A DNA stretch of 64,000 bases from an uncultured delta proteobacterium (GTDB lineage: Bacteria; Desulfobacterota; Binatia; UBA9968), in NCBI GenBank assembly GCA_963816145.1, contig CAWFJP010000011.1, forward strand, positions 128,001-192,000, given 5' to 3'. Below are positions 13,372 through 51,181 of the stretch, in pieces. The position numbers were made by a program, and so were the translations under genes. Under the pieces are notes generated by a model. The model saw only the letters and a list, made by a program, of their open reading frames with translations, was not told where the DNA came from and searched no databases. Every line of letters starts with the position of its first letter. Position 1 is the first letter of the stretch.

Positions 13372-13695
13372 CTACGGTTTCATCGATTCGGGGAAGTATT
13401 TTGACGGCGCCCAAACATTGACCGTGAAATTGCAGCAACCCAAGACGCGCAGCTCGCGCATGATCCGGATATAATCGGCCGAATCGATAAAGTCGCGCCA
13501 GCTATCCAGCGTGTCAAAATCGATGGTGATCGCCACGTGGGGCGTCACTTCCAACGGGTTGCGATAGTTGCGCACTTCGATCACGCCTTTATGGCCCAGC
13601 GTGATCGGCAACCAATCGTTCTTCGCCTTGTTGGCGTAAATTGTTAAGTTAGCTTTCTGGTCGGGTAGATCCCATTGAATCACGAAGTGTACCAT
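13372..13695 (-). CDS. Small hypothetical protein, probable dimeric alpha/beta barrel (EthD/DUF1330-like)
   Basis: RBS GAGG; 'IDFDTLDSWRDFIDSADY' pattern; follows the SDR gene closely. Confidence 0.65.
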   Translation of the reverse strand: MVHFVIQWDLPDQKANLTIYANKAKNDWLPITLGHKGVIEVRNYRNPLEVTPHVAITIDFDTLDSWRDFIDSADYIRIMRELRVLGCCNFTVNVWAPSKYFPESMKP

Positions 13696-14915: not shown

Positions 14916-15782
14916 CTAACTCAATTTCCAGCTGACAAATCCCCAGCCTGTGGCAACAAAGTCCGGCATGTAAGCGGTAAAACTCGCTTTGGCATCGCCG
15001 ACTGCGCCAAGCACCACCATCCAGTTGAGAAATTCCGTATCGCCGGCGTGCAAGAGTTCTTGAACTGAATATTCAACCAAGCTGCGCCCTTCGCCCTTGC
15101 GCATCACTTCAAGCAGCTTGTGATCGAAACTCTCGTCGATCTCGCCGATGCGCGGCGAGCCGGGGAAATGCGACAACCCGCCGGTGGCAAGGATCGCCAC
15201 TCGCTCTTTCGCGTTATTCGCCACTTCGCGGATCAGTTCACCCACTTGAAAGCAGCGCCGCGGCGAAGGCGCCGGATCGACCCAGGTGTTCACATAGATG
15301 GGCAAGATCGGCATCGTCGGCTGCGGCAGCAGAAAATACAGCGGCACCGTCTGCGTATGTTGCAACTCGACATGCTCGCCGTAAGAAAAGTCGATGCCCT
15401 TTTCCATGCCGGCGCGGAGGATCGCTTTGCCGAGTTCCTTGTGATTCTGATAATCGAACCTATGCCGGGTGAATTGCCCCTGCACTCGATCGGCGATGGT
15501 GACAAAAAACGTCGGAATATTGTTCCAGAAAAAATTAACGAACTGATCGTTGGCGACAACGATCAGTACGTCCGGCTTGGCCCGCTCTAGATCGGCGCGC
15601 AGCGTTGAGAACGCGACTTCCGCGTCATGCCGCAGCTTCTGCTGTTGCTCCAGAGTCGGACGGTTGGCCGAACCCTGCGGCGCCATGCTGTAGTGCAAAT
15701 CCATAAAATCTTCCCACTCTCGTCCGGGTTCGAGAAGAATATTCGGCGCATGGCTCGCCGCTAAGGCGGAAACTAGTGGCAT
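14916..15782 (-). CDS. LigB/MhpB-like class III extradiol dioxygenase
   Basis: 'SHAP', 'PDVLIVVANDQFVNFF', 'ATGGLSHFP', 'IDESFD'. Confidence 0.88.
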   Translation of the reverse strand: MPLVSALAASHAPNILLEPGREWEDFMDLHYSMAPQGSANRPTLEQQQKLRHDAEVAFSTLRADLERAKPDVLIVVANDQFVNFFWNNIPTFFVTIADRVQGQFTRHRFDYQNHKELGKAILRAGMEKGIDFSYGEHVELQHTQTVPLYFLLPQPTMPILPIYVNTWVDPAPSPRRCFQVGELIREVANNAKERVAILATGGLSHFPGSPRIGEIDESFDHKLLEVMRKGEGRSLVEYSVQELLHAGDTEFLNWMVVLGAVGDAKASFTAYMPDFVATGWGFVSWKLS

Positions 15783-15960
15783 AGCTCAAACTCCTTCGCA
15801 AAGTGAGCGAAATCCTATGCCCCGACCTGGGAAAATGCAAGATGAAACGGCGGGAACAAAAGAAGAGTGACGGAAGATAACAGCAACTTGAACAGCGAAG
15901 AACCGAGGTAAGCCGATGCTAGACAGACCAGTGATCTGTCCGTTCGCGGCGCTGGCCGAT

Positions 15961-16107
15961 CTAAAGCATGCGATAGTTACGCACTGAAACCCAGATCGCC
16001 ACAAAGACAACGACGAGTGACACAATCGGGTGATTCAACACCCACACTAGCGCCGGTTCGAAAGCATGCCGGGTAACCCACTCAAAAGACCGTGAAAGTT
16101 GTTCCAT
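15961..16107 (-). CDS. 48-aa single-pass membrane microprotein (not in ORF track)
   Basis: RBS GAGGTGAGG; MEQLSRSFEWVTRHAFEPALVWVLNHPIVSLVVVFVAIWVSVRNYRML*; hydrophobic stretch followed by a basic tail. Confidence 0.6.
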   Translation of the reverse strand: MEQLSRSFEWVTRHAFEPALVWVLNHPIVSLVVVFVAIWVSVRNYRML

Positions 16108-16532
16108 GCCGCACCCTCACCTCAATTATTTTTTACTATTCTATTACAACCGCTGCCTGCCGGGAACTACAATTCTGCTCCCATCAATTAAATTAAATGG
16201 CCGCCCGGGTTGCTCGGCTATCATTGCACAGCCATTTTTATTGAAACATGCACCGCGCGAATCGCCTCGCCGTCAGCCAAACTAACCAGCCACCTGGACG
16301 TCATTGACAAGACAGAACCATTGTCGACCCACAGTCTGTCCGAGCGTTGAGGTAATTTAGGTCAGTTTTAGATCATTTACGCAAGATATAAGTAGACTTC
16401 TGTACATTCCTGGACGAGGCTGAACAATTCTGCAAGCTTCGACCTCGGATTTCACCATCCACTCGATTACCCAAGCTCTCGTAACTACCTAAATTTACGC
16501 AGAATTCACCCACCCGAAGATATTTCGAGAGT

Positions 16533-16549
16533 CTGGCACCGCGGTTGCT
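16533..16549 (+). promoter_or_regulatory. Sigma54 (-24/-12) promoter
   Basis: CTGGCACCGCGGTTGCT matches YTGGCAC-N5-TTGCW with exact GG-N10-GC spacing, ~40 nt before an AAGGAG-preceded ATG. Confidence 0.8.
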
Positions 16550-16587
16550 CTATCGTCGGTACATCAACGCAAATAAAGGAGCATCCG

Positions 16588-16737
16588 ATGAAACTATTAC
16601 TCGCCACCATGTTCAAGAAAGTTCCCGTGCGCAAGACCAAACAGCGCGCGACGATCTGCAAACAATGCGGCACGAGAATCTACTCGTTGAGTTTTCTCAA
16701 AGCCCATCTCGAGTCCCATAATCGGAAATCGCACTAA
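16588..16737 (+). CDS. 49-aa protein with a single classical C2H2 zinc finger (not in ORF track)
   Basis: RBS AAGGAG; MKLLLATMFKKVPVRKTKQRATICKQCGTRIYSLSFLKAHLESHNRKSH*; C-x2-C-x12-H-x3-H. Confidence 0.72.
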   Translation: MKLLLATMFKKVPVRKTKQRATICKQCGTRIYSLSFLKAHLESHNRKSH

Positions 16738-16762
16738 TCCATAATTGCAAGGAGATAGGAAA

Positions 16763-16969
16763 ATGGAAGTCCCGGTGATCCCGTGGAAAGTCTTTCTCGA
16801 CGCCCTTCAGCATCAGCAAGCGAGTACCTTGGAGCCTTGGTTGCGCCGCTGGTGGTTCACCAACGAAGGCGTGATTATGGAAAGCTCGGCTTGGCAAGAC
16901 ATGGTTGGTCGAATCGACAATAGCGCAGCAGACCATGAAGCTGTTCAAGCGCAATTCGAGCAGCGATAG
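16763..16969 (+). CDS. 68-aa Trp-rich hypothetical protein
   Basis: RBS GGAG/AGGA; MEVPVIPWKVFLDAL...PWLRRWWF; follows the C2H2 ORF by 25 nt. Confidence 0.55.
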   Translation: MEVPVIPWKVFLDALQHQQASTLEPWLRRWWFTNEGVIMESSAWQDMVGRIDNSAADHEAVQAQFEQR

Positions 16970-17171
16970 TCAGCGGCCGGTCACGGCGCGCTGCAATCAT
17001 CCGCTCGCGGTGATCGTCGATCCGACCGAGCGGGAGGTGAAGGAACTCGAAACCATGCTCGCCCACTGTCCCAATTGCAGTCAATGGCATCCCGGCGACG
17101 GTCCGATCATGGCGGTACTCAACAGCACTGAAGATTCGAGTCAGAATAATTCCAACAACCATTCGCTGTGA
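16935..17171 (+). CDS. Small hypothetical protein with CxH and CxxC motifs
   Basis: MKLFKRN...RCNHP...HCPNCSQWH; overlaps the previous ORF by 35 nt, start uncertain. Confidence 0.5.
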   Translation: MKLFKRNSSSDSQRPVTARCNHPLAVIVDPTEREVKELETMLAHCPNCSQWHPGDGPIMAVLNSTEDSSQNNSNNHSL

Positions 17172-17210
17172 CACATCGAGAAAAATCACCGACACCAGGA
17201 AAGCGCAACC

Positions 17211-17477
17211 ATGGAAGCCCTAAAGATCATTCTCCCGAGCGCCGAACGCAAACCCTGCGTGTGCGGCGCCACGCTTTATCGCACAAACGTAACGAGGCCT
17301 CAGAGCGAACCGATCTGGCTCTGCTCGCGCCACTGCGGCGCCCGCGGCCACACCTACGAAGGCGCGCTGCGGCGCAAAATTAGACTGGATCTGTTGAGCT
17401 GGGGCGATCTGCGGCGCAACGCGCAGAAGTTGATTGCCGCCGACACGGAAATCGAAGATGAGTTTGTTTTGCAATAG
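17211..17477 (+). CDS. 88-aa zinc-ribbon-like hypothetical protein
   Basis: AGGA upstream; CVCG...WLCSRHCG. Confidence 0.6.
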   Translation: MEALKIILPSAERKPCVCGATLYRTNVTRPQSEPIWLCSRHCGARGHTYEGALRRKIRLDLLSWGDLRRNAQKLIAADTEIEDEFVLQ

Positions 17478-18170
17478 CAATGGCGCTTATTTCCACCTCT
17501 GTTTTAATCCGGATAAAGTGCGGTCATGCCGCTGTATGGAGTTGCAATAGCTCAACTGACGATAAACTTGTTCGCTTCAGTCTCCCTGGTGTAGCGCGAC
17601 AGTGATCGCAGTCTTCCACCCCTGGCCATTTTAACAACAAGAGATAGTCAAGACATAAATGGCCTGAGCGCAGTTCCACTACCTGGAATACCCCGCGTCC
17701 GAAATGCATTCGTCGAGCTAGTCCATCTAGTCAACAACGTGCCGTCCATCCAATGTAAACACGCGATGTGGATAGGCGACGACCCCTTGAATGCCATCCG
17801 AAGATCACCCTGTTTCAGCCGTTGTCCCGGGGGCAAGTCCGACACTTTTCAAACCATCCACCGTTTTCTGTGTGACGCGCTTATCGTTCCCGAGGAACGC
17901 ATGGACCTCGTGCCGGTCATTTGTTGTTTGCCTTTGGGTGACAACCATTCGAGCAAATGTGGAGGCTTTGCACACGATCTTCGCGTTTCTGTTGATCAAG
18001 GTAAATCTAGCCGTTAACTGTTCCGGTGATTCTGGCTTGTTCGTTACCGCATCTGCCATTGAATGCCGTTAATTTAAGCTTTGTAGTTTTGTCTCGCACG
18101 CAGCTATAATGCGTCGACTAAAATAGTGAAAGGTTGGCACCTAGAAGATCGAAAAGTGTGAGGCAAAACT

Positions 18171-20132
18171 ATGAAGTTACCGCCGGAGCAAGAAGCTATA
18201 CGAGCGAAGTGTTTTCATCCATCGGGAACGTTTGTTGAGTTCCCCTCAGAGGATGTCGAGACTTCAATCCCGGCGCGCTTTGAGAAAATGGTAAGAACGC
18301 ATCCGCACCGCATAGCAATCAAAGCGGGAGAGTATACGGTTCACTATGACCAGCTTAATGTGATGGCGAATCGCGTGGCGGGAACTGTCATTGGCGAGGC
18401 CTCCACAGCTGCTGGACCAGTATGCATGTTGATTGATAATGGACCGGACTTGATAGCCACAATGCTCGGCATCTTGAAAGCTGGCCGATTCTTTACCCTT
18501 GTCGATGCGTCTTTTCCGAAGGCAAGAATCGACTCTACCGTTAGAGACTCCCAATCAAGGTTGCTTCTGCATCAGAAGCGGCATTCGTTGCTGGCACAAG
18601 AGATTGCGGCGGGTTGTAAATTGGTGCAAGTAGAATCTCTCGAAACTTCCGCCTGCGGCGATAATGCTGTGATGCCAATTGCGCCGACTGATCCGAGTAC
18701 AGTGATATATACCTCGGGTTCAACCGGCCAACCCAAGGGCGTTGTTCATAGCCATCGAAGTCTGCTGCATAAAACTTTGCGGCGCACCAACGCATTTCAC
18801 GTGTCCCCGGAGGATAGAATAAGTCTACTTTCCTCAGGCACGTCCAATGTGGTTTCCATTGCATTTAGCGCAATCCTCAACGGCGCGGCCCTTATCACTT
18901 TCGATACACGAAAGGACGGTATTCTTAACTTAAAGGGATGGTTACAGGCAGAAAAGATTTCTATCGCTTTTATCAGTGCGCAGTTTTTTCGAATGCTATC
19001 CGATAGTTTGACAGAGAAAGATGGCCTCCCCGATCTTCGTCTGGTTCGCCTTTCAAGCGAGGCGGCTCGCTGCGGCGACTTTGAGCTTTTTCGAAGACAT
19101 TTCCCAAAACATTGCACTCTAGTTAATGGGTTGTCGTCCAGCGAAACTGGAGTCATAAGAAAATACTTCATGGACCATAACTCGCAGATGTTCACGGACA
19201 ATCTGCCTATCGGTTATCCCGAGGAGGGCATGGAAATATTTTTGCTGGATGATAACGGCCAGCAGGTCGGGGTCGACAATGACGGCGAGATCGTGGTTCG
19301 AAGCAAGTATTTGGCGTCCGGATATTGGAACAACCCAGCTTTGAGCGCAGCCAAGTTTAAGCAGGACCCGGAGGACTCAGAGAAGCTGATTTACTACACG
19401 GGAGATTTAGCGCTGATGCGTCCGGACGGTTGCCTGATCCATAAGGGACGAAAAGACTACCGCATAAAAATACGAGGTTACGGGGTCGACCTTTTGGAGG
19501 TCGAAAAAGCTCTGCTATCGCATCCGGACATTCACGAAGCCCTGATAACGACAATAGAAAAGGAGGACGGAACTGCTCGTTTGATCGCCTATTTTGTTTG
19601 CGGTCGCCAAGGCGATGTTACAGTGAGCGAGCTACGAAACCATTTGAAGAACAAGCTCGCTGAATACATGATTCCATCGCTGTTTATCAAACTCGACCAT
19701 CTCCCTCTGACTGCAAACGGAAAGATTGACCGTAAAGCTCTGCCCAAGCCGGATCATTCGCGCCCGGAACTATGCTCGCCGTACGCTAATCCACAGAATC
19801 AGATTGAAGAGTACCTGGTGCGGATTTGGGAGGAAGTCCTTGATGTCCGCCCCCTTGGCATCGACGATAACTTCTTCGACGTGGGTGGTCACTCTTTGGC
19901 AGCGACTATGGTTGTCTCCCGCGTTATCCAACAGTTCCAGATCGACATGCCACTGAAATCGCTGTTTCAATCTCCGACCATCGCCGACATGGCCGCCGTA
20001 GTCACCGCACATCTAGGGAAAACTTTAGACGAGAACCAGTTGGAAATTATCCTAGACGAATTAGCGTCGTTATCGGACGCGGAAGCTCAGCAGCTTGTGA
20101 GCGAAAGTAATTCGACGATCACCAAAAAATAG
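18171..20132 (+). CDS. Stand-alone NRPS-like adenylation-thiolation (A-T) didomain
   Basis: A3 'IYTSGSTGQPKG', A7 'YYTGDL', A8 'GRKDYRIKIRGY', A10 'NGKIDR', carrier motif 'FFDVGGHSL'. Confidence 0.92.
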   Translation: MKLPPEQEAIRAKCFHPSGTFVEFPSEDVETSIPARFEKMVRTHPHRIAIKAGEYTVHYDQLNVMANRVAGTVIGEASTAAGPVCMLIDNGPDLIATMLGILKAGRFFTLVDASFPKARIDSTVRDSQSRLLLHQKRHSLLAQEIAAGCKLVQVESLETSACGDNAVMPIAPTDPSTVIYTSGSTGQPKGVVHSHRSLLHKTLRRTNAFHVSPEDRISLLSSGTSNVVSIAFSAILNGAALITFDTRKDGILNLKGWLQAEKISIAFISAQFFRMLSDSLTEKDGLPDLRLVRLSSEAARCGDFELFRRHFPKHCTLVNGLSSSETGVIRKYFMDHNSQMFTDNLPIGYPEEGMEIFLLDDNGQQVGVDNDGEIVVRSKYLASGYWNNPALSAAKFKQDPEDSEKLIYYTGDLALMRPDGCLIHKGRKDYRIKIRGYGVDLLEVEKALLSHPDIHEALITTIEKEDGTARLIAYFVCGRQGDVTVSELRNHLKNKLAEYMIPSLFIKLDHLPLTANGKIDRKALPKPDHSRPELCSPYANPQNQIEEYLVRIWEEVLDVRPLGIDDNFFDVGGHSLAATMVVSRVIQQFQIDMPLKSLFQSPTIADMAAVVTAHLGKTLDENQLEIILDELASLSDAEAQQLVSESNSTITKK

Positions 20133-20454: not shown

Positions 20455-21348
20455 TTAAAATACGGCCGTTTCGCCGCACAGCAAATCTAAGAACGGTTTA
20501 GCCGGCCCCAAGAGTTTCCTATCCTTGTGCGTTATAGCGCGGAACTCACGCTTCATCGGAGAACCGGCAATCCTAGCATAGGCCAACGTATTGGTTTGTT
20601 TCTCCAGTTGGATGCTGCATTGGGGAGTGATGGAACAACCAAGGCCTTCTGCGACCGCTTTTTTTAACGCTTCAGAGGTCTCAATCACCATCATACAATC
20701 GTAAGAGAGTCCGGCAGCACGAAAACTTTCATCGATGATCGATCTTGGTAAAGAGCCCTTATCTCTTAAAATGAGTGGGAATTTGGCGATTTGCTTTAAG
20801 GTTACTTTCGGTCGCCCGGCAAGCGGATGATCGGGGGGGGTGATCAGGACGAATTCATCAGTAAGATAGTGTACGACTTTAAAGGCTGAGGGGTTCGTCA
20901 TAGTTCCCGACACCATTCCTAAATCCAATTCGTTGGCGAGTATTTGCTTTTCAATCTCCGCAGTTTTCTCGACGACAATTTTAATTTCGACATTCGGGAA
21001 TGTTCTTTTAAATTGCACTAACACCTTTGGCAATAAATGAACCGCAATCGTGGTGGTAGCACCGCACCGTAATTGGCCTCTTTTGAAGCCCTTAAGTTCA
21101 TCTATCGCCAAAATCATTTCGTCGAGGACAATCATCACTCGATCGGTATATTCCGCCACGATTCTTCCGGCATCGGTCAACTCAATTCTCCGTCCCAAGC
21201 GTTTGAAAAGCTCAGTGCCTAATTGTTTTTCAAGTTCCTTGACGCGAATTGAGATCGCCGGTTGGCTCAAATGGATCGATTCCATCGCGCGCTCAAAACC
21301 ACCCTTCTTTACGACGGCCGAGAAAGCCTTTAATTGATCAAGTTGCAT
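20455..21348 (-). CDS. LysR family transcriptional regulator
   Basis: HTH 'LSQPAISIRVKELEKQLGTELFKR...LTDAG'; divergent from the amidohydrolase. Confidence 0.93.
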   Translation of the reverse strand: MQLDQLKAFSAVVKKGGFERAMESIHLSQPAISIRVKELEKQLGTELFKRLGRRIELTDAGRIVAEYTDRVMIVLDEMILAIDELKGFKRGQLRCGATTTIAVHLLPKVLVQFKRTFPNVEIKIVVEKTAEIEKQILANELDLGMVSGTMTNPSAFKVVHYLTDEFVLITPPDHPLAGRPKVTLKQIAKFPLILRDKGSLPRSIIDESFRAAGLSYDCMMVIETSEALKKAVAEGLGCSITPQCSIQLEKQTNTLAYARIAGSPMKREFRAITHKDRKLLGPAKPFLDLLCGETAVF

Positions 21349-21440: not shown

Positions 21441-22595
21441 ATGACCATGGCGAGAAACGGATTTAAGGTTTTCGATGCTGACACCCATGTCGGCCCGGCA
21501 GTAGAAATCCTGGATAAATACCTAACCGAAGCAGAGAGACGAAAGCTTGAACCTTGGGAGCCCTACAAATGGACCGACCCCCAAATTGGTAACGTCATGT
21601 ACATCCGAGGACGCCGCAAATATCTCCGGCGTCTCGGTTCAGCACAACCAGAGGAGGACAAGCCAAAGACCTCCAGATTTAGCGGCGCCCTTAAAAACGA
21701 ACGAGTCCCGCTTTCCGACAATGACCCGGCAGAGCGCATAAGGGATATGGATATTGAAGGGGTGGACGTCGCTCTAATGCTGCCCTCGTCGTGGTTTGGC
21801 ACATTCACTGTAGGCGATGATATCGATTTGGAAACGATAATGTATCGAGCCTATCACCGGTGGATGGCCGATTATTGTGGTGCCTATCCGCACCGATTGA
21901 AGGGCGTCCTGGCGGTGTGCGTTCGTGATTTAAAGGCAGGACTACTAGAGATTGAGCGATGTGCCAAGGAGAATTGGCCTCTGGCGGCGCTCGTGTATGC
22001 CCCGACTGGATATCCGCTCGATCACCCGGATCTCGAACCATTATGGGCTGCATGCCAGCACCACGACTTCGCTGTCGCGCTTCATCCGTTTACCACAACG
22101 CCACCTTACGCCGCCGGCGGTTTGGACGTGTATGACAATCATTGGATTTTGCGTTGCACATCACAAACATGGACGGCGATGCGCGACACTGCCGCCATTC
22201 TGGGCGCTGGTATAATGGACCGCTATCCGACGCTTCGTTTAGCGCCACTGGAAGCAGGCCACAGCTGGCTGCCCTTCTGGATGGCCAGGATGGACGAGTT
22301 TTCCCGCTCCCATGCCAAAGGATTGCCGCCGCTGAAAAAGAAACCCAGCGAGTACATACTCAGTGGTCGTTATTTCCAAAGCATCGAGATGTCCGAGGGC
22401 GAAAAGCTCACCAAATCCATGATTGACATCCTCGGCGAGGATATTCTGATGTATGCGTCAGACTTTCCTCATCTGGAAAGCTGGTTCCCGGAATCCGTCG
22501 ATACTGTTATGGCGTGGGATTTGCCGGAACGAGTCAAGCGAAAACTGTTTTGGGATAACGCGGTCAAATACTACGCCAGGTATAGTGACGATTAG
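21441..22595 (+). CDS. Amidohydrolase_2 family protein
   Basis: 'FDADTH', 'DMDIEGVD', 'LEAGHSWLP', 'YASDFPH'. Confidence 0.9.
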   Translation: MTMARNGFKVFDADTHVGPAVEILDKYLTEAERRKLEPWEPYKWTDPQIGNVMYIRGRRKYLRRLGSAQPEEDKPKTSRFSGALKNERVPLSDNDPAERIRDMDIEGVDVALMLPSSWFGTFTVGDDIDLETIMYRAYHRWMADYCGAYPHRLKGVLAVCVRDLKAGLLEIERCAKENWPLAALVYAPTGYPLDHPDLEPLWAACQHHDFAVALHPFTTTPPYAAGGLDVYDNHWILRCTSQTWTAMRDTAAILGAGIMDRYPTLRLAPLEAGHSWLPFWMARMDEFSRSHAKGLPPLKKKPSEYILSGRYFQSIEMSEGEKLTKSMIDILGEDILMYASDFPHLESWFPESVDTVMAWDLPERVKRKLFWDNAVKYYARYSDD

Positions 22596-49830: not shown

Positions 49831-51181
49831 TTACTTGATGCCGAGACTCTTGATCATGCGCAGAAAATACTTCTCGTGCAGGCCCAGTGCTTTCGCCGCA
49901 GCAGCGCGGTTGCCGTTTGTCTGCGCCAACGCCTGCACCACTAACGATCGTCGCGTCGACTCCATCGCCTCGCGGTAGCTAGGGCTGTCATTCTGAGCCA
50001 GCGCTGTCGCCGCAACAATACGGTTCGGCAGATCTTTGACCGTCAGCGTCTCACCGCTGCCCAAGACCACGGCGCGCTCGATCACGTTGGCAAGCTCGCG
50101 GACATTTCCCGGCCAGTGATACGCGCCCAGTTTTACCAACGCGTCGTTCTCTAGAATTGTGAAATTCTTCTTCGACTCCGCGGCGAATCGTCGAAGAAAG
50201 TGCTCCGCCAAGGCGCCGATGTCTTCGGTTCTTTCGCGCAGCGGCGGCAATGTGATCGGGATGACATTGAGCCGATGGTAGAGATCTTCGCGGAAGCGGT
50301 TTTCACCGACGGCGCTTTCGAGATCGCGATTGGTCGCGGCGACGATGCGCACGTCGACGCGGATCGGCTCGCGCCCGCCGACCCGGTCGAATTCGCGCTC
50401 CTGGAGAAAGCGCAGCAGCTTGGTTTGCAGCTCCGCCGACATATCGCCGATCTCGTCGAGGAAAACCGTACCGCCGTTGGCCAGCTCCATCTTGCCTTTT
50501 TTGAGCTGGTCGGCGCCGGTGAAGGCGCCCTTCTCATGGCCGAACAGTTCGCTTTCCAGGAGTTCTCTCGACAAGCCGACGCAGTTGATCGCGACGAAGG
50601 GTTGGCTGCTGCGCTCGCTCCAGTGATGCATCGCGCGGGCGAAGATTTCCTTGCCCGTGCCGCTTTCTCCCAGGAGTAATACCGTGGCGCTGCTCGCCGC
50701 CGCTTTGCGCGCCATGTCCACCGCATCGGCCATTGGTTTACTCTGGCCGACGATCAGCCGGTGGCGATTATCGGTCTCGGCCGCGAGCAGTTGCCAGCTC
50801 CGTTTCAGCGCCTCGCTTTCGAGCGCTTTGCGCACAACGATGTCGAAATGGTTGGCGTCGAGGGGCTTGGTGATGAAATCATAAGCGCCTTCTTTCATCG
50901 CCGCCACCGCGCTTTCGATGGAACCATGGGCGGTGATGACCACGACGGGAAATGCCGTTCCTACGGCGTCGCAAGTGGCGCAGCACTTCGATGCCGCCCA
51001 TCTTGGGCATCTGCAAGTCCAACAACATCAGAGCCGGCTCATGCTTCTTGATCTGCGCCAGCGCTTCCTCGCCGTCGGCGGCCAAAGCAACCTCGCAACC
51101 CAATGCGCGCAAACGCACCTGCAACAGCCGCCGCGCCGGCGCGTCGTCGTCGACGATCAACACGCGCGCTCCGGTTGTCAT
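49831..51181 (-). CDS. Sigma54-dependent response regulator (NtrC/AtoC type), one frameshift near 50970
   Basis: Receiver 'VLIVDDD..LLDLQMP' in one ORF; 'ITAHG','KP', AAA+ 'GESGTGKE', 'GAFTGA', 'WPGNVREL' and Fis-type HTH in the next. Confidence 0.9.

Follow-up and report, generated by a model that had tools for sequence, protein, structure and literature searches.

Classical Cys2His2 (C2H2) zinc fingers of the TFIIIA/Zif268 type (PF00096) are the commonest DNA-binding module of animals, but in bacteria they are rare and little understood. Sigma-54 regulons, in turn, are usually described as sets of enzymes, transporters and envelope proteins. Here, we describe a locus of a soil bacterium of the uncultured class Binatia (Candidatus Binatia) which, judged by comparative sequence data, is very probably a real sigma-54 operon of real zinc-finger microproteins. 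A predicted sigma-54 (-24/-12) promoter precedes four small genes, orf1 to orf4, the first of which encodes a protein of 49 amino acids (aa) with one finger of the C2H2 type. The window, i.e. the whole stretch of 64,000 nucleotides (nt) that was analysed, is G000:C11:128001-192000 of a genome of 7.8 Mb in 31 contigs.

Orf1 shares with the PF00096 fingers the ligand spacing C-x2-C-x12-H-x3-H and the two hydrophobic core positions. Unlike them, it has only one finger, within a bacterial protein of 49 aa, carries a basic N-terminal arm of 22 residues, appears to be expressed from a sigma-54 promoter, does not have DNA-reading residues at its helix positions and scores below the Pfam cut-off. Among bacterial proteins, the Ros/MucR family is described as comprising Cys2His2-type zinc proteins that act as transcription regulators (PMC9779718). 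Orf1 is likewise bacterial and of the C2H2 type, but differs from this family in its length of 49 aa, its x12 spacing and its taxon. Ros/MucR proteins are about three times longer (~140 aa), have their ligands spaced more closely and form a larger globular fold. The Pfam scan of the window proteins, in which hits at E<=0.1 were listed, gave no Ros/MucR domain for orf1.

Micro-proteins with one zinc-finger domain have also been described in Haloferax volcanii as proteins of <70 aa with a single zinc-binding domain, many of them with stress or regulatory phenotypes (PMC6562870, PMC11241148, PMC10716476). Orf3, with its CPNCS motif, and orf4 resemble these haloarchaeal C(P)XCG proteins in size and in their Cys pairs. 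The haloarchaeal proteins are, however, archaeal and mostly C4 zinc ribbons with two C(P)XCG motifs, whereas orf1 combines one CxxCG with an HxxxH; orf1 contains one CKQCG, orf3 one CPNCS and orf4 no such motif. No sequence relationship between the two groups was found, and sigma-54 is not known from archaea. With the glnAp2 and pspA promoters the locus shares GG and GC elements 10 nt apart, candidate tandem upstream sites and an A/T-rich tract between these and the promoter; its output differs, since it consists of microproteins instead of an enzyme or transport operon.

A full-text literature search returned nothing that links Binatia, sigma-54 and zinc-finger microproteins, and the main text of a Binatota genome survey (PMC8262859) contains none of the terms 'sigma', 'zinc finger', 'RpoN' or 'small protein'. 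In line with this, a first-pass annotation of the window had taken the module to be undescribed, and this assessment stands: orf2 to orf4 have no Pfam family, their database relatives are all 'hypothetical' and no paper on them was found. What is new is that two known parts, a C2H2 finger and a sigma-54 promoter, are combined in bacterial microproteins of an undescribed family. Orf3 and orf4 add two new ORFan families of microproteins with a putative role for zinc. The features of the module are, by position in the window:

16401..16432, plus strand: candidate enhancer (upstream activating sequence, UAS) of tandem structure, a conserved block in 30 aligned loci.
16534..16549, plus strand: predicted sigma-54 (-24/-12) promoter TGGCACcgcggTTGCT, an exact consensus match conserved across loci.
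16588..16737, plus strand: orf1, the core gene, encoding a 49-aa basic C2H2 zinc-finger microprotein (alignment, dN/dS).
16763..16969, plus strand: orf2, encoding a Trp-rich microprotein without Cys, 68 aa here (alignment, dN/dS).
16935..17171, plus strand: orf3, encoding a 78-aa acidic microprotein, best start ATG 16935 (alignment, dN/dS).
17211..17477, plus strand: orf4, encoding an 88-aa microprotein with a putative C4 ligand set followed by a long basic helix (alignment, dN/dS, AlphaFold model).

The predicted promoter, TGGCACCGCGGTTGCT at 16534-16549 on the plus strand, is the sole exact match to TGGCAY-N5-TTGCW in the window. It reads TGGCAC-N5-TTGCT, with the GG at 16535-16536 and the GC at 16547-16548 and exactly 10 nt between them. 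By shuffling, 0.10 exact matches are expected, at least one being present in 10 of 100 shuffles. When one mismatch was allowed, the window contained four matches compared to 5.24 expected, which is chance level and makes the motif alone weak evidence. The motif in itself therefore proves little, and it is conservation that makes the case for a promoter strong. We compared two sets of loci, one of 19 (the window and 18 relatives) and one of 35 (the window and 34 loci from public genomes); the genomes of the two sets overlap, and counts of loci include related genomes that are not independent. TGG[CT]A-N7-[TC]GC is located 48-54 nt 5' of the orf1 ATG in all 35 loci of the larger set and in the same placement in 18 of the 19 loci of the first set. 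Across the aligned loci, conservation reaches at least 90% in the GG and GC blocks, and the 5-nt spacer and the flanks are variable. The consensus -24/-12 promoter that had been claimed for this position is supported by its conservation in relatives, which had been suggested as a check. Transcription is predicted to start at ~16560, with a leader of ~28 nt.

The genome encodes rpoN once (PF04552 match, 212.6 bits) and contains 34 strong matches to the enhancer-binding domain PF00158 (218-255 bits), so that RpoN and enhancer-binding ATPases, both required for a sigma-54-dependent promoter, are encoded alongside the GG/GC spacing of this site. Exact consensus sites number 46 genome-wide, compared to roughly 12 expected when the shuffling of the window is scaled up, and 33 of the 46 are followed by a Shine-Dalgarno motif and an open reading frame (ORF). 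One of these 33 ORFs is a PII (GlnB/K-like) gene behind the same consensus; PII genes are classical sigma-54 targets. Many of the 46 sites precede ORFs of only 34-91 aa, for example C15:21054 (-), C29:370907 (-), C1:88134 (+), C3:874365 (+) and C14:466267 (-). These small ORFs include two paralogous excisionase-like helix-turn-helix (HTH) proteins, and a similar HTH ORF follows orf1 in one relative (L021).

Orf1 has a ribosome-binding site, AAGGAG, 6 nt 5' of its ATG. The protein follows the pattern C24-x2-C27-x12-H40-x3-H44 or, with its core residues, C-x2-C-x3-I-x5-L-x2-H-x3-H. Locus L015, from an unpublished genome, was left out of our alignments A1-A4, and broken or poorly started copies were left out of A2-A4. 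All four ligands (C24, C27, H40 and H44) are invariant in 18 of 18 sequences, as are the hydrophobic core positions I31 and L37, and the alignment has 23 invariant columns in total. Twelve K/R residues stand against one acidic residue, and the basic N-terminal arm (22 residues) is as conserved as the finger itself. The median ratio of non-synonymous to synonymous substitution rates (dN/dS) is 0.086; this and the other dN/dS values are pairwise medians, and many pairs are saturated at synonymous sites and were not counted. The alignment shows one motif of the classical C2H2 kind, with a predicted beta-beta-alpha fold, joined to a conserved basic N-terminal arm. The first-pass annotation had recognised no known family among the ORFs, which holds for orf2 to orf4 (no Pfam family) and does not hold for orf1, a classical C2H2 finger.

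A profile search of orf1 against 1.8 billion representatives gave 30 matches, ~20 of which are small proteins of its own family; the others are multi-finger C2H2 proteins with up to 37 fingers. Of 17 weak matches in the PDB, 14 are eukaryotic C2H2 fingers in register, among them Miz-1/ZBTB17 (E 0.0054), BCL6 and others. The nearest clusters in the ESM Atlas are single C2H2 proteins of 50-66 aa, several of them archaeal. By tblastn, orf1 was present in all 18 relatives of the first set. A DNA search of 24 other genomes of the genus retrieved the locus from 18 of them, and the same search of 16 genomes from two other sampled families retrieved it from none. Of 123 genomes of the order, 40 gave a full-length orthologue of orf1; these 40 belong to a single family, and the other families of the order gave 0 of 5 and 0 of 28 genomes.

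The genes are closely spaced, with 25 nt between orf1 and orf2, an overlap of 35 nt between orf2 and orf3, and 39 nt between orf3 and orf4. Sigma-70-like promoters and terminator-like sites showed no excess over chance in the operon region, which together with the short gaps is consistent with one transcript. Rfam gave no match at E<=1 on 15500-18300. Contigs from metatranscriptome libraries of soil and sediment (at least two studies) cover pieces of the operon at a depth of 2-6, namely 16339-16586, 16658-16848, 16996-17316 and 17388-17473, and one of them bridges orf1-orf2 and one orf3-orf4. Being assembled, such contigs reveal neither strand nor ends nor whether there is a single transcript; DNA may also be present in the libraries, and the parts of the operon without cover carry no meaning. 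In RNA-library contigs of a related strain, similarity ends right after the orf4 stop.

The four genes were proposed to form one cluster, but they do not travel as a unit of four. Among the 35 loci, orf1 is universal, and orf2 (17 loci), orf3 (19) and orf4 (14) vary independently and occur in nearly all combinations. In the 18 relatives of the first set, tblastn detected orf4 in 13, orf3 in 13 and orf2 in 11. Where orf2 to orf4 are missing, the slot contains an excisionase-like HTH protein (L021), a receiver domain (L037) or other Cys-rich small ORFs (L043 and L049; an 84-aa Cys-rich ORF and a zinc-ribbon-like ORF). By its gene content, the site after orf1 behaves as a variable cassette at a synteny breakpoint.

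Orf2 is 68 aa long in the window and ~48 aa in most relatives; its conserved core comprises residues 1-40 (WLRRWLFTNEGVI), which are Trp-rich and invariant, and its median dN/dS is 0.16. It is frameshifted in L002/L028 and absent from L004. The start of orf3 overlaps orf2 and has no obvious ribosome-binding site. Its conserved core is RCNHPLAVxVDPT..ELE.MLA.CPNCS.W.PGDGPIMAV, and its putative ligands C20, H22, C45 and C48 are invariant in 10 of 10 aligned sequences; a divergent copy left out of that alignment (L014) has Y in place of H22 and of C48. The median dN/dS of orf3 is 0.30. All of its 174 database relatives are unnamed or 'hypothetical', the named sources are Binatia and none has a Pfam domain. 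The AlphaFold model of orf3 is poor (pLDDT 56.6) and unfit for a fold search.

Orf4 begins with PCVCG...WLCSRHCGARG, followed by a long basic helix (YEGALRRKVRLDLLSWGDLRRNA). Its putative ligands C16, C18, C38 and C42 are invariant in 12 of 12 sequences, the median dN/dS is 0.215, and frameshifts occur in L012/L033. Its 253 database relatives are all 'hypothetical' Binatia proteins, none with a Pfam domain. The AlphaFold model (pLDDT 79.8) places the four Cys on three short strands (13-46), followed by a helix at 49-86. Compared to a zinc ribbon, C16/C18 and C38/C42 do lie on short strands in the model, but CxC and Cx3C are atypical knuckles. No fold was assigned: Foldseek against the PDB gave no fold match (best E 1.3), a wide VIA-align search returned only long-helix look-alikes (best Z 3.8), and the best score in the ESM Atlas, 0.87, was below lead level.

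The distribution and dN/dS values of orf2, orf3 and orf4 indicate that they are restricted to one Binatia family and are under purifying selection. All four short co-oriented ORFs first reported here are conserved as proteins in relatives (dN/dS 0.086-0.30), and the distinct sets of potential zinc ligands noted in three of them are invariant at the orf1, orf3 and orf4 positions in the alignments, apart from the L014 copy of orf3. The reported ORF lengths apply to the window; for orf2 the typical length is the shorter one of its relatives. Many real genes of <90 aa stay unannotated or 'hypothetical' in metagenome-assembled genomes, and orf3 and orf4 represent two ORFan families of putative zinc microproteins without a known fold.

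The non-coding DNA upstream of the promoter had been noted as leaving room for enhancer sites, and a conserved candidate enhancer is indeed present there. It consists of two related sites of 12-16 bp, 20 bp apart, with TGTACATTCCTG / TGAACAATTCTG as the copies in the window and tGTACAAnnTTGctCA ... tGGACAAnnCTG as the family consensus. Besides the promoter and this element, no block of the intergenic region of 220-800 bp is strongly conserved in the 30 aligned loci. Two classes of spacing between element and promoter, 118-122 and 128-135 bp, account for 29 of 30 loci (the outlier of 173 bp in one locus is perhaps a false regex match), while the distance from the element to the divergent gene is free and ranges from 34 to 571 bp. 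The two classes are about one helical turn apart, which is the expectation for activation by looping. The tandem sites lie ~130-155 bp upstream of the predicted start, with an A/T-rich tract between the element and the promoter.

A scan of the 7.8 Mb genome with a position weight matrix (PWM) scored 28.9 bits at the element. The next best site reached 23.6 bits and has no sigma-54 promoter behind it. The lack of a comparable PWM site elsewhere in the genome suggests a dedicated activator, which we infer would bind at the tandem element. The first-pass annotation had pointed to an AAA+ activator at 49831-51181. A real enhancer-binding protein is encoded there, but its link to the operon, offered as speculative, is not supported: the genome has 34 such proteins, this one is encoded at a distance of 33 kb, and the gene order downstream of the operon is not conserved in any relative.

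~50254..50754, minus strand: AAA+ enhancer-binding protein in a 398-aa open frame (PF00158, 244 bits).

No linked activator was found within 6 kb in the ~15 loci inspected. In L037, as an isolated case, a stand-alone receiver domain follows orf1 and a GAF histidine kinase lies 5 kb off.

A scan of the genome with the strict finger pattern returned three small ORFs, namely orf1 and two paralogues of 69 aa, encoded on contigs C30 and C13:

G000:C30:513330-513536 (L055:1031-1237), minus strand: paralogue A, a 69-aa C2H2 microprotein with a conserved predicted sigma-54 promoter.
G000:C13 ~1560-1766 (L056), minus strand: paralogue B, a 69-aa C2H2 microprotein with a conserved predicted sigma-54 promoter.

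Sigma-54 consensus sites are located at -60 and -50 from the ATGs of A and B. For paralogue A, all 30 loci examined in the family retain GG-N10-GC, as TGGYA-N7-YGC in 26 and as an aligned CGGCAT-N5-TTGCT in the other four, which belong to one genus; for paralogue B, the promoter is kept in 21 of 21 loci. Both paralogues contain a conserved C-terminal helix, ELKKLQxxMxRMR, that is absent from orf1, and their distribution over genera, in presence as in absence, matches that of orf1. Paralogue A has conserved upstream elements of its own and a perfect IHF-like site, WATCAA-N4-TTG being the IHF consensus. An enhancer common to all three paralogues was rejected, as the elements of orf1 and paralogue A differ and the PWM found no other strong site. 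The automatic JGI name 'ribosomal protein S27AE' for paralogue A was judged to be a zinc-ribbon mislabel. The three paralogues, with a promoter kept in every or nearly every locus, tie a family of finger microproteins to sigma-54 and offer a tractable way into the regulation of an uncultured, globally distributed soil phylum. With 49-69 aa, they are also natural minimal zinc fingers for structural and binding studies.

Taken as a whole, we consider it rather probable that the locus is a lineage-specific, enhancer-dependent mini-operon for signal-induced regulators that bind nucleic acid or protein, although their function is deduced indirectly. Upon a signal, one of the 34 enhancer-binding ATPases would bind the tandem site ~130-155 bp upstream of the start and loop to the sigma-54 RNA polymerase, switching on a transcript with the ~28-nt leader and orf1 to orf4. 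Orf1 would fold around one zinc ion and act as a small trans-acting effector, most likely by binding nucleic acid via its basic arm and finger or by docking on a conserved protein partner. Nucleic-acid binding is known from proteins that join a single finger to a basic extension. The signal of one activator would in this way be turned into a secondary regulatory output, which orf2 to orf4 may modify or extend as optional add-ons.

Several observations weigh against this interpretation or parts of it. One locus of the first set (L016, G008) has no promoter within its upstream DNA, which amounts to a mere 149 nt. Two RNA contigs, 16339-16567 and 16374-16586, span the promoter and the DNA upstream of the start and therefore lend no support to a start at ~16560; they may be carried-over DNA or stem from another transcript. 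The Pfam score of orf1 for zf-C2H2, 17.3 bits, is below the gathering cut-off of 25.2, and that for zf-C2HE, 20.1 bits, is likewise sub-threshold (30.1). Single fingers often score low. We accordingly describe orf1, from its sequence pattern, as C2H2-type and not as a curated member of PF00096. In our own reading of the alignment, the helix has S, S, F/Y and A at what we take, from the textbook Zif268 register, to be the canonical DNA-reading positions. These residues are unlike those of sequence-specific DNA readers, which favours binding of protein or RNA. Lastly, paralogue A is slightly acidic overall, so that a description as basic nucleic-acid binders fails for the family as a whole. A complex prediction of orf1 with orf2 and zinc (score 0.02, mark 0.32) was informative neither way.

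A role of the zinc-finger microproteins as regulators or nucleic-acid binders is thus itself tentative, with somewhat less than an even chance in our estimate. More doubtful still is an extended version in which single C2H2 microproteins form a dedicated output layer of sigma-54, with three genes that each have their own enhancer, activator and signal. The finger proteins would then be diffusible second-tier regulators reaching targets beyond those of the activator itself. If true, this would represent a regulatory architecture not seen before, and bacteria would have put the classical zinc finger to use independently.

The same three genes may also be read as protein-binding feedback modulators, i.e. 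anti- or co-activators of their own activator or of the sigma-54 polymerase, for which PspA with PspF and HrpV with HrpS are precedents. Such a role would fit the three paralogues, each with its own sigma-54 promoter and a different upstream element, the orf1 helix positions that are not those of DNA-reading fingers, and the very conserved amphipathic ELKKLQxxMxRMR helix of A and B, a typical docking surface; nor does a conserved target gene adjoin any of the three finger genes. On the other hand, no activator gene is linked to any paralogue, and orf1, which is far more basic than A, does not have the C-terminal helix. We regard feedback modulation as unlikely.

A module for metal (zinc) or redox stress, in which the small Cys/His proteins buffer, chaperone or sense, had been offered by the first-pass annotation as an alternative to zinc-binding regulators (metal/redox sensors) and appears less likely again. 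Three of the four products have four invariant Cys/His ligands, other Cys-rich small ORFs follow orf1 in some of the loci that lack orf2 to orf4 (L043 and L049), and the zinc-stress protein ZraP of enterobacteria is under sigma-54 control. However, a single four-ligand site per protein within a strongly conserved sequence is typical of structural zinc and not of a buffer. A Cys or His cluster is lacking in orf2, and neither a metal transporter nor a metalloregulator is linked to the gene cluster.

On its upstream side, the mini-operon adjoins a conserved string of genes in the order NUDIX, HhH-GPD glycosylase, LVIVD-repeat protein, 107-aa protein, short-chain dehydrogenase/reductase (SDR), LigA-like, LigB and c3. 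Two of these have no Pfam family:

15961..16107, minus strand: c3, a divergent, conserved 48-aa single-pass membrane microprotein without Pfam family.
13375..13695, minus strand: conserved 107-aa ORF without Pfam family, in 27 of 35 loci at the end of the SDR-LigA-LigB string.

The gene c3, with the motif ...EPxLxWVxxHPxxS...VRxYRML, is present in 30 of the 35 orf1 loci at a median position of -535 from orf1, and by tblastn (E<=1) it was not found in 8 loci of genera without orf1. From this co-occurrence, c3 would belong to the module. The arrangement raises the question of whether the operon serves the divergent LigB/LigA/SDR ring-cleavage genes as a regulator or accessory. The SDR-LigA-LigB-c3 block lies upstream and divergent in ~27-30 of 35 loci, and paralogue A is flanked by genes of catabolic type (enoyl-CoA hydratase-like and zinc-dependent alcohol dehydrogenase-like). 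Yet a search of the family detected a LigB orthologue in 73 of 90 genomes. These represent 22 of its 23 genera, with every genus that lacks a detected orf1 among them, and in 8 loci of such genera unrelated genes lie beside LigB, with neither orf1 nor c3. In addition, the upstream element is phased with the sigma-54 promoter and not with the divergent gene. Since LigB occurs without orf1 or c3 alongside, LigAB is a synteny anchor and not a partner, and these comparative data make a service to ring cleavage a very slim prospect. The unit that is gained or lost appears to be c3, the intergenic region and the sigma-54 operon.

Downstream of the operon, the window contains the following genes, none of which is conserved beside the operon in relatives:

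18171..20132, plus strand: stand-alone gene for a non-ribosomal peptide synthetase (NRPS)-like adenylation and carrier protein (A-T; AMP-binding and PP-binding domains).
20455..21348: divergent LysR regulator.
21441..22595: amidohydrolase.

That the small ORFs encode precursor peptides or accessory proteins for the NRPS-like A-T protein, or are not genes at all, is suggested by the position of Cys-rich ORFs 0.7 kb upstream of the AMP-binding and PP-binding gene, but can practically be dismissed on the comparative data, as the adenylation gene and all else downstream differ in every relative examined, the ORFs are conserved over their whole length with dN/dS well below 1, which is not the pattern of a leader/core precursor, and hundreds of intact homologues exist. 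A link to NRPS or to ribosomally synthesised and post-translationally modified peptides (RiPPs) was rejected because the neighbouring gene is not conserved.

The synteny that was to be checked in relatives is therefore kept in the upstream block and not in the downstream order, where nothing was conserved in the relatives examined. There, the downstream genes include an MFS transporter, DUF763, complex I subunits, cytochromes, polyphosphate kinase, phosphoketolase and an ECF sigma factor. In one locus (L033:2564-3991, G017), a DDE transposase lies between SDR and LigB, and orf4 is frameshifted in the same locus.

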